NCBI GenBank assembly: GCA_017450965.1
Contig: JAFSSQ010000080.1
Span: 19,330 to 83,329, forward strand
DNA: 64,000 bases
Direction: 5' to 3'
Origin: Clostridia bacterium
Lineage (GTDB): Bacteria; Bacillota; Clostridia; Oscillospirales; CAG-272
The translations under genes were made by a program, and so were the position numbers. This document shows positions 33,189 to 33,714 of the stretch, piece after piece. Position 1 is the first letter of the stretch. Every line of letters begins with the position of its first letter. The notes below the pieces were generated by a model. That model made no database searches. It had not been told where the DNA came from and was given only the letters and a program-made list of their open reading frames with translations.

Positions 33189-33473
33189 AATGATGTTTGC
33201 CCTGTCGGGCAAATGATGTGTGCTTCGCACATGATGCTGCCTTCGGCAATGATGCGTCCTGCGGGACATGAGGGCAAACATCTCATCATTGCGAGCGAAT
33301 GCGAACAACATCATTTCGGCGAAGCCGATACATCATTAGGCGCTTTGCGCCGACATCATTATGGGCTATTTTGTTGGTGTATAAGCCATCATTCTCGATC
33401 ATATTGAATCTTCATCAGAAATATCAAATTTACCCCGTTTTCATTCTTGGGCTATTTCGTCTGTTAATCACAG
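33189..33473. repeat. Module A of the heptad + variable mini-hairpin array (AATGATG / CATCATT)
   Basis: Forward heptads are at 33189, 33212, 33230 (CATGATG) and 33248, plus a degenerate ATGAG at 33268. Each is followed by a different short perfect hairpin.

Reverse heptads CATCATT are at 33284, 33309, 33331, 33354 and 33387, each preceded by a hairpin.

The module ends in a conserved box gggctatttcgtctgttaatcacag (33449-33473). Details are in the findings. Confidence 0.85.
33398..33427 (-). promoter_or_regulatory. Candidate sigma-A promoter reading leftwards into module A
   Basis: On the minus strand: TTGATA (33427-33422), 18 nt spacer, TATGAT (33403-33398). The predicted start at about 33391 lies at the first heptad (33393-33387). 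Confidence 0.4.
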
Positions 33474-33502
33474 AAAAAAGCACGCGAAAGCGTGCTTTTT
33501 TC
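33474..33502. terminator. Bidirectional intrinsic terminator T1
   Basis: aaaaaagcacgc-gaaa-gcgtgctttttt. Confidence 0.8.
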
Positions 33503-33714
33503 AACGAAATTTGCTCTTCGGGCAAGTGAAATACGCCTGCGGCGTGTGAAATGTGCATACGCACGTGAAATGTTCGCTAAAGCGAACGTGGGCAAATTTC
33601 ATTTCACATTCGGCGATAAGCCGAATACTTCACACCGAGCGTTAGCGAGATACTTCACATTTTGCCGACAGGCAAAACACTTCACTTTTTGGCTACTCTG
33701 TCTGTTATTCACAG
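33503..33714. repeat. Module B of the heptad + variable mini-hairpin array (GTGAAAT / AYTTCAC)
   Basis: Forward GTGAAAT is at 33526, 33546 and 33565, with an interrupted copy at 33588 and a partial CGAAAT at 33505. Each is followed by a hairpin.

Reverse copies are ATTTCAC at 33601 and ACTTCAC at 33627, 33652 and 33679, each preceded by a hairpin.

The module ends in the conserved box ggctactctgtctgttattcacag (33691-33714). Confidence 0.85.

Follow-up and report, generated by a model that had tools for sequence, protein, structure and literature searches.

The question raised by this locus is why a short repeat that differs between two adjacent modules has changed, in each of them, together with its own reverse complement. 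The modules lie in an intergenic region (33153-33780) of a 64,000-nucleotide stretch of a Clostridia bacterium (assembly GCA_017450965.1, contig JAFSSQ010000080.1), here called the window, between a tRNA gene on the plus strand and a convergent DUF3048 gene on the minus strand. Each module consists of a forward array of seven-base repeats (heptads) separated by small hairpins, a centre, and a reverse array that carries the heptad complement. The region is composed of two tandem copies of the Gut-1 element (Rfam RF01706) and a stub, in a mirror-image double-array form; it represents a known family in an extended form that is not described by Rfam or by Weinberg et al. 2010 (PMC2864571). Of the new facts, the best supported are this double-array architecture, a helix (P1) that joins the start of a module to its centre, the occurrence of discrete heptad classes, and the linkage to a gene for an Avd-like protein. 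The explanation we favour, to which we give slightly less than an even chance, is that the heptads of the double-array Gut-1 element are recognition sites placed between clamp hairpins, that a PF05635/TIGR02436 protein is the candidate partner, and that the modules in the window are orphan sites. The parts of the modules, in the numbering of the window, are the following.

33153 to 33188, unstranded: T0, a hairpin of the bidirectional terminator type, 16 bp long and flanked by an A-run at one end and a T-run at the other; the dinucleotide CA joins it to the first heptad.
33189 to 33273, plus strand: forward (alpha) array of module A, with GC-rich mini-hairpins between the heptads.
33192 to 33203, plus strand: S1 of module A, the 3' part of the first heptad and the 5' arm of hairpin 1; one strand of P1.
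33271 to 33282, plus strand: S3 of module A, the centre segment and partner of S1, with 12 of 12 bases complementary to 33192-33203.
33284 to 33393, plus strand: reverse (beta') array of module A, five copies of CATCATT with hairpins between them.
33398 to 33427, minus strand: sigma-70-like promoter match TTGATA-18-TATGAT (10 of 12 matches), directed into module A from the reverse-array side.
33473 to 33502, unstranded: 13-bp hairpin with an A-run and a T-run that separates the modules, being T1 of A and T0 of B.
33502 to 33576, plus strand: forward (alpha) array of module B, a full-length RF01706 match (70.2 bits against a gathering score of 50, E = 2.6e-13).
33592 to 33603, plus strand: S3 of module B, the centre segment, with 11 of 12 bases complementary to 33503-33514 (first heptad and hairpin-1 arm).
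33601 to 33685, plus strand: reverse (beta') array of module B, one ATTTCAC and three ACTTCAC.
33714 to 33747, unstranded: 15-bp hairpin with an A-run and a T-run, 3' of module B.
33748 to 33776, plus strand: minimal third module (stub), in which AATGATG + TTTGCC pairs directly with GGCAAA-TCAT to give one long hairpin and no arrays.

The forward array of module A contains AATGATG at 33189-33195, 33212-33218 and 33248-33254, CATGATG at 33230-33236 and a degenerate fifth copy, CATGAGG, at 33267-33273; its reverse copies start at 33284, 33309, 33331, 33354 and 33387. Module B opens with a degenerate ACGAAAT (33504-33510), followed by GTGAAAT at 33526, 33546 and 33565, and its reverse array has ATTTCAC at 33601 and ACTTCAC at 33627, 33652 and 33679. 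All heptads are present where an earlier note on this DNA had placed them, its copy numbers (5 + 5 in A, 4 + 4 in B) are correct, and the homology that it proposed at both ends of the modules is confirmed. All 10 copies of AATGATG in the 64-kb window lie inside Gut-1-like arrays, where scattered copies would be expected with a mean of 4.3, and the spaced pair GTGAART-N9-24-GTGAART occurs 5 times in the window against an expected 0.02. The view that the heptads of A and B are completely different has to be given up: after a shift of one base they read AUGAUGY and GUGAAAU, and because the Rfam model aligns the one to the other they are variants of a single motif, RUGAWRU.

The relation to Gut-1 extends beyond the full-length match in module B. 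Module A scores 34.6 bits against the same model over 33188-33260, which is below the gathering score of 50, and has the heptad variant AUGAUGY, and the reverse array of module B scores 22 bits when read on the minus strand. Both modules contain at least three short hairpins separated by the heptad and begin with CA and a heptad. The hairpin stems covary among homologues, with 223 distinct hairpin sequences in 104 arrays and about 98-99% Watson-Crick pairs. Module B shares with the published motif the CA + first-heptad start, three covarying hairpins and the GUGAAAU linkers, and the element in the window follows a terminator and a tRNA gene, as several seed sequences do.

Gut-1 was originally presented as a probable non-coding RNA, restricted to human-gut metagenomes, with a structure of three hairpins and 18 covarying positions and no annotation downstream; the supplementary text on it is a single sentence (PMC2864571). 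The published motif ends at the fourth heptad and its annotated structure consists of the three hairpins alone, whereas the element considered here also has a reverse array, the P1 helix, linkage to a protein gene, and classes other than GUGAAAU and GUGAUAU. The flanks in the alignment of Weinberg et al. already hold reverse copies (in BAAZ01000095, GUGAUAU is followed by four AUAUCAC), and the same alignment includes 240-nt tandem copies. We conclude that, as a rule, Gut-1 forms one half of a larger, mirror-image element. Its range is also wider: the original description confined it to the human gut and placed it in no sequenced organism, whereas many genome bins, from several animals, now contain it. 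In Rfam, Gut-1 has been present since 2010 with a one-sentence description and no function. Some caution is needed in using that entry, as the model covers only part of the element and the strand and the RNA nature are not secure.

Two samples of related loci were compared. A pattern scan with one genome per species gave 120 loci, 58 of which have hairpin spacers and were taken as true arrays, and 80 metagenome loci were drawn by the neighbouring protein and not by the heptad. Combined, they contain about 65 double modules and many single arrays. Most of the pattern-scan arrays belong to genome bins of Oscillospiraceae, Acutalibacteraceae, Ruminococcaceae, Christensenellaceae and further Clostridia from animal and human guts; Akkermansia is represented in addition. 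The common layout, as it reads on the strand that bears the upstream tRNA, starts with the terminator-type hairpin T0, CA, the first heptad and hairpin 1, continues with three heptad-hairpin units, a degenerate fifth heptad (GTGAG...) and the centre S3, and ends with four reverse heptads and their hairpins. The junction TTTTTCA + first heptad is present in most related modules, and in double modules the first heptad itself is often deviant (ACGAAAT, GTTATAT). Single arrays without reverse copies, followed by a terminator, occur as well (L008, L011, L091, L092, L108).

The joint change of forward and reverse heptads that had been noticed between modules A and B is borne out family-wide, at the level of classes. 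Six classes with a complementary reverse array were found (GTGAAAT, GTGATAT, ATGATGY, ATGAAAT, TCGATAT and GTGATGT), all with the UGA-centred core xUGAxxU, and in no double module examined do the two arrays differ in class. With detection blind to class, the two members agree in 15 of 15 close convergent pairs of the pattern-scan sample, and agreement is likewise complete for the strictly detected double arrays of the protein-drawn sample (9/9). Facing arrays of unlike class were encountered only with a terminator-like hairpin between them (L014, L003). While the hairpins turn over completely, as the 223 distinct sequences in 104 arrays illustrate, the heptads stay in a few discrete classes across dozens of genomes.

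Several known types of element were considered and rejected. A repeat of the REP or BIME type (repetitive extragenic palindrome, bacterial interspersed mosaic element) does not fit, because the palindromes all differ between copies and only the 7-nt linker is conserved. Phage origin is disfavoured by the occurrence of hairpin spacers in only 4 of 120 viral pattern matches as compared to 58 of 120 in genomes. Of the 83 Gut-1-like elements, 16 have a tRNA at a distance of at most 150 nt, against 2.7% expected at random, and since these neighbouring tRNAs are of at least 12 kinds, tRNA identity is ruled out as the factor that sets the heptad class.

Another idea is that the element is a selfish or neutral repeat, either a cassette like a miniature inverted-repeat transposable element or a terminator-associated one, in which templated correction of quasi-palindromes at replication keeps both the symmetry and the stems, so that the complementarity has no function. 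Tandem and partial copies, such as those in the window and the 240-nt ones of the published alignment, would be expected from such a repeat, and so would the adjoining of tRNA genes and terminators in many unrelated contexts and near-perfect stems without strand bias. However, hairpins that are wholly different between copies beside fixed heptads are the opposite of what a recently spread repeat should show, the architecture and P1 have been retained across a range from Clostridia to Akkermansia, and the linkage to one protein clade is tight. We regard a functionless repeat as very improbable.

The complementarity itself could be explained by pairing. The earlier note proposed that the outermost forward heptad pairs with the outermost reverse heptad and so on inwards, giving in the transcript a rod of 7-bp heptad helices separated by four-way junctions. 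Such a rod might also switch with a fold closed by P1 and in this way mask or expose the heptads. Class-level complementarity in every double module is what such a structure requires, and the usually equal heptad numbers of the two arrays, the direct abutment of hairpins and heptads without spacer bases, the isolated compensations in L119 and L269, and the restriction of unlike-class arrays to pairs across a terminator are all in agreement with it. By calculated energy the rod also has an advantage of 5 to 22 kcal/mol over the hairpins alone.

Pairing at the level of individual positions was examined in 22 modules with variant heptads in both arrays, which provide 88 nested pairs. These were read by hand; automated parsing mis-registered overlapping ATTTCATTTCAC and added spurious end copies, and the hand-read lists were used. 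Fully Watson-Crick nested pairs number 39 of 88, compared to 39.0 expected when the order of the reverse array is permuted, so that nesting adds nothing to the complementarity found with permuted partners. Homologous loci do not always keep the two sets of heptads complementary either: L045 has four GTGATAT opposite four GTTATAT, L267 has none of its four nested pairs intact, and GTTCTAT, GTGTTAT and GTGGTAT are present without compensation in forward arrays of the GTGATAT class. Moreover, all helices of one module would be identical and their sequence is conserved across taxa, for which pairing alone offers no explanation. The heptads of single arrays have no partner in cis, because a terminator follows directly and reverse copies are absent.

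A competing long-range helix, P1, is formed by the 3' part of the first heptad and the 5' arm of hairpin 1, which are complementary to the centre. In module A it joins 33192-33203 to 33271-33282 (12/12) and in module B 33503-33514 to 33592-33603 (11/12), and in the latter it appears in the minimum-free-energy fold of the plus strand. Among 40 modules 65% have an exact P1 of at least 11 nt, with at least 7 different arm sequences. Since P1 closes the forward array on itself, it cannot coexist with the rod without crossing it. Folding also places the rod 12 to 28 kcal/mol above the minimum-free-energy folds. As judged from these sequence comparisons, a nested rod of heptad helices is not supported as a conserved fold, and we consider it unlikely as the explanation of the complementarity.

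The stub 33748-33776 is 92% identical to the start of module A. In it, the first heptad and hairpin-1 arm pair straight with a centre-like GGCAAATCAT. It may represent a core out of which arrays expand.

The protein side of the favoured explanation comes from the genes that follow the modules. A gene for a PF05635/TIGR02436 four-helix-bundle protein is located just 3' of double arrays in Clostridia and in Akkermansia (L072, L117, L015, L114, L052, L030, L027, L071, L008 and L241-L279). In about ten pattern-sampled loci this gene, of 115 aa, starts about 55 to 120 nt past the last reverse heptad. The module-adjacent protein is a clear member of the family (Pfam E = 1e-24, TIGR02436 E = 3.5e-28, 2RLD E = 2.7e-43). 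A Gut-1 array ends at most 250 nt upstream of the PF05635 gene in 26 of the 68 protein-sampled loci, and when these are sorted by identity to the query the linkage is found in 15 of 18 at 60% or more, about 9 of 20 at 49-58% and 1 of 35 below. The layout is constant: the last reverse heptad runs directly into a -35 box (TTGAAA or TTGCAA), which is followed by a 17-nt spacer and TGnTATAAT.

PF05635 resembles Avd (PMC10053308), and the PF05635/23S-rRNA-intervening-sequence protein family is uncharacterised outside diversity-generating retroelements. The likeness to that family is twofold, in that the module-linked gene is a clear member and that Avd acts together with structured nucleic acid in those retroelements. 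The systems differ in other respects. By inspection of the diverse open reading frames 3' of ten PF05635 genes, without a family-library scan, no reverse transcriptase was recognized, which led us to reject a diversity-generating retroelement; template or variable repeats are also absent near the module-linked genes. A 23S rRNA intervening sequence was rejected as well, since the modules follow tRNA genes and terminators and lie outside the 23S helix. The window has no PF05635 gene. In L118 (2046-2853, minus strand) a module is positioned at the 3' end of a 23S-tRNA-5S-tRNA operon, past the last tRNA and the terminator. The Akkermansia sp. locus L008 (2314-7055) has at least seven arrays of three classes (GTGAAAT, ACGAGAT, GTTATAT) within 5 kb, together with a PF05635 gene.

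In view of the above, the heptads are read as sequence-specific recognition sites because they are fixed across genomes while the hairpins turn over; stems that serve for pairing only behave like the hairpins. In the mechanism that we propose, a module begins at the terminator-type hairpin, after which the forward array presents about five RUGAWRU heptads with short, perfectly paired, GC-rich hairpins. The centre segment would pair back on the first heptad and hairpin-1 arm to form P1, and the mirror-image array with the heptad complement follows. The heptads would be held single-stranded between the clamp hairpins, where they could act as sequence-specific recognition sites. The complementarity of forward and reverse heptads and their joint change would then mean that one module carries one recognition class in mirror orientation, and a conserved nested rod would be unnecessary to account for it. 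The four-helix-bundle Avd-like PF05635/TIGR02436 protein, the gene of which directly follows the module in many genomes, is the candidate partner of the heptads. The modules of the window could be orphan sites, served in trans. The working form might be RNA of either strand or single-stranded DNA.

The earlier note had mentioned, as an alternative to pairing, a dimeric nucleic-acid-binding protein specific for each module. The idea of recognition by a protein is closer to the data, but the solved relatives 2RLD and 2GSC contain five chains per entry, which fits a pentamer and not a dimer. A bolder proposal, which we put forward only as a less probable extension, is that Gut-1 double arrays and the Avd-like PF05635 clade form a two-part cassette (terminator hairpin, mirror arrays, promoter, gene) in which about five heptads dock a pentameric ring, and that the arrays, instead of being the free small RNA assumed by Rfam, may act as folded single-stranded DNA with C-GNA-G mini-hairpins.

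Five observations weigh against recognition of the heptads by such a protein. When the open reading frames of at least 50 aa were all searched with a profile, no PF05635 gene was found in the window, and it is for this reason that its three arrays would have to be orphan sites. Several classes can occur in one genome (three in the window, two or more in L008, L014, L034, L070 and L090), so a single protein must tolerate several classes or paralogues are needed. The protein clade and the heptad class may co-occur by shared ancestry alone. The occurrence of class mismatch only across a terminator (L014, L003) is also predicted by pairing in cis. Finally, a few nested changes look compensatory, namely the innermost pair GTGAAGT/ACTTCAC of L119 and the outermost pair GTTTTAT/ATAAAAC of L269.

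RNAs with repeated short protein-binding motifs are known from CsrB and RsmZ, which bind CsrA, and from the trp leader, which binds the 11-mer TRAP. The Gut-1 arrays are similar to these in that a short motif recurs at regular spacing, set off by hairpins, and in that the number of repeats is near the subunit number of a ring-shaped candidate partner. They differ in that the motif lies between hairpins instead of in loops, that there are several classes and mirror-image pairs, and that the partner is only a candidate. Three results, i.e. the mirror-image form, the discrete classes and the linkage to one clade, make Gut-1 and PF05635 a testable pair.

Which strand would be transcribed is a related issue. 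The earlier note inferred the minus strand from wobble pairs, since ACTTCAC gives G.U only on that strand. This is correct for module B but does not hold family-wide: in the 22 modules nested pairs are complete with G.U allowed in 48 of 88 cases on the tRNA strand and in 52 of 88 on the other. In the stems of the mini-hairpins the G.U counts are 7 versus 15 overall and 7 versus 4 in oriented modules, which is no significant strand bias. Other pointers to the minus strand are the A-run that makes T0 bidirectional, a recurrent A.C in P1 that becomes G.U on the opposite strand, and the promoter-like match 33427-33398. This match is the only sigma-70-like one in 32900-34000, shuffled sequences give one by chance, and its orientation into module A is only a hint. 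The promoter search of the modules found no conserved promoter for either strand elsewhere; the conserved TTGAAA-17-TGnTATAAT 3' of modules is the promoter of the next gene. Pointers to the plus strand are the orientation of the Rfam model and synteny, as arrays in the Rfam orientation lie on the same strand as the tRNA gene on their 5' side and the protein gene on their 3' side. In L243, L271 and L274, furthermore, the module is too close to the next start codon for a promoter to fit in between. From these data the transcribed strand of the element cannot be called.

The loops of the hairpins provide another indication of the form in which the element may work. Of 223 loops, 114 are of 3 nt, and more than 85% are closed by C-G. 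In the RUGAWRU sense the loops are TTC (34), TGC (24) and TAC (7), also TTAC and TTGC, as compared to GAA (3) and GCA (2), and the loops on the opposite strand are consequently C-GNA-G or C-GNNA-G. This polarity reverses between the two arrays of one module. Loops of the class C-GNA-G and C-GNNA-G characterize the extraordinarily stable DNA mini-hairpins (PMC13037366, PMC3201870). The arrays resemble the described d(GCGNAGC) and d(GCGNNAGC) in that C-G closed GNA or GNNA loops dominate one strand per array; they differ in that the literature deals with isolated oligonucleotides, replication origins and promoters and describes no such array (PMC13037366, PMC3201870).

A DNA-level role is conceivable because of the loop class, the near-pure Watson-Crick stems and the position between terminator and promoter, taken together. 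In that case the mini-hairpins would form on single-stranded DNA or be extruded from supercoiled duplex, one array would expose its stable hairpins on one strand and the second array on the other, and the heptads would be read in that setting. The matching loops on the heptad-reverse strand, stems of about 98-99% Watson-Crick pairs without significant G.U strand bias, and the placing of modules in a stretch that runs from a terminator to the -35 box of the following promoter, and that shows no evident promoter itself, are consistent with this, and the flip of loop polarity between arrays is not predicted by a single RNA. On the other hand, for extrusion one would expect longer stems than these of 4 to 7 bp, and GNA and GNRA-like loops are acceptable in RNA too. 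The lack of room for a promoter before the PF05635 start codon in L243, L271 and L274 means that the module is probably transcribed there, and one-directional terminators follow single arrays, e.g. in L091. Weinberg et al. graded the motif as likely RNA (PMC2864571). We consider it unlikely that the element acts as DNA.

The surroundings of the modules and a further array in the window are listed below.

32481 to 33074: recR, directly 5' of the tRNA gene.
33077 to 33152, plus strand: tRNA gene, immediately 5' of the element, called by ARAGORN as His with anticodon ATG.
33795 to 35279, minus strand: DUF3048 gene, convergent, the 3' flank of the intergenic stretch 33153-33780.
54842 to 54901, plus strand: separate single Gut-1-like array, AATGATG followed by two AACGATG, with hairpins.
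54927 to 54969: bidirectional terminator after this array, which it has in common with tRNA-Glu and tRNA-Met of the minus strand.

The array at 54842-54901 ends in a GTCC..GGAC hairpin that resembles hairpin 4 of module A. A conserved tail motif, GGSYWAYYTCGTCTGTTAATCACAG, follows the last reverse heptad and precedes the terminator, at 33449-33472 and 33690-33713, with a degenerate copy near 33362-33385; the same motif occurs in a Ruminococcaceae genome bin (L119, about 880-905). The tRNA 33077-33152 scores 56 bits against the Rfam tRNA model. An ATG anticodon, with A at position 34, is unusual for tRNA-His in bacteria, and the acceptor and D-arm look Gln- or Cys-like (U1-A72, G73). Elsewhere in the window, a bacterial large signal recognition particle RNA (30243-30509, plus strand) is detected with 170.8 bits; it overlaps open reading frames of the program-made list.

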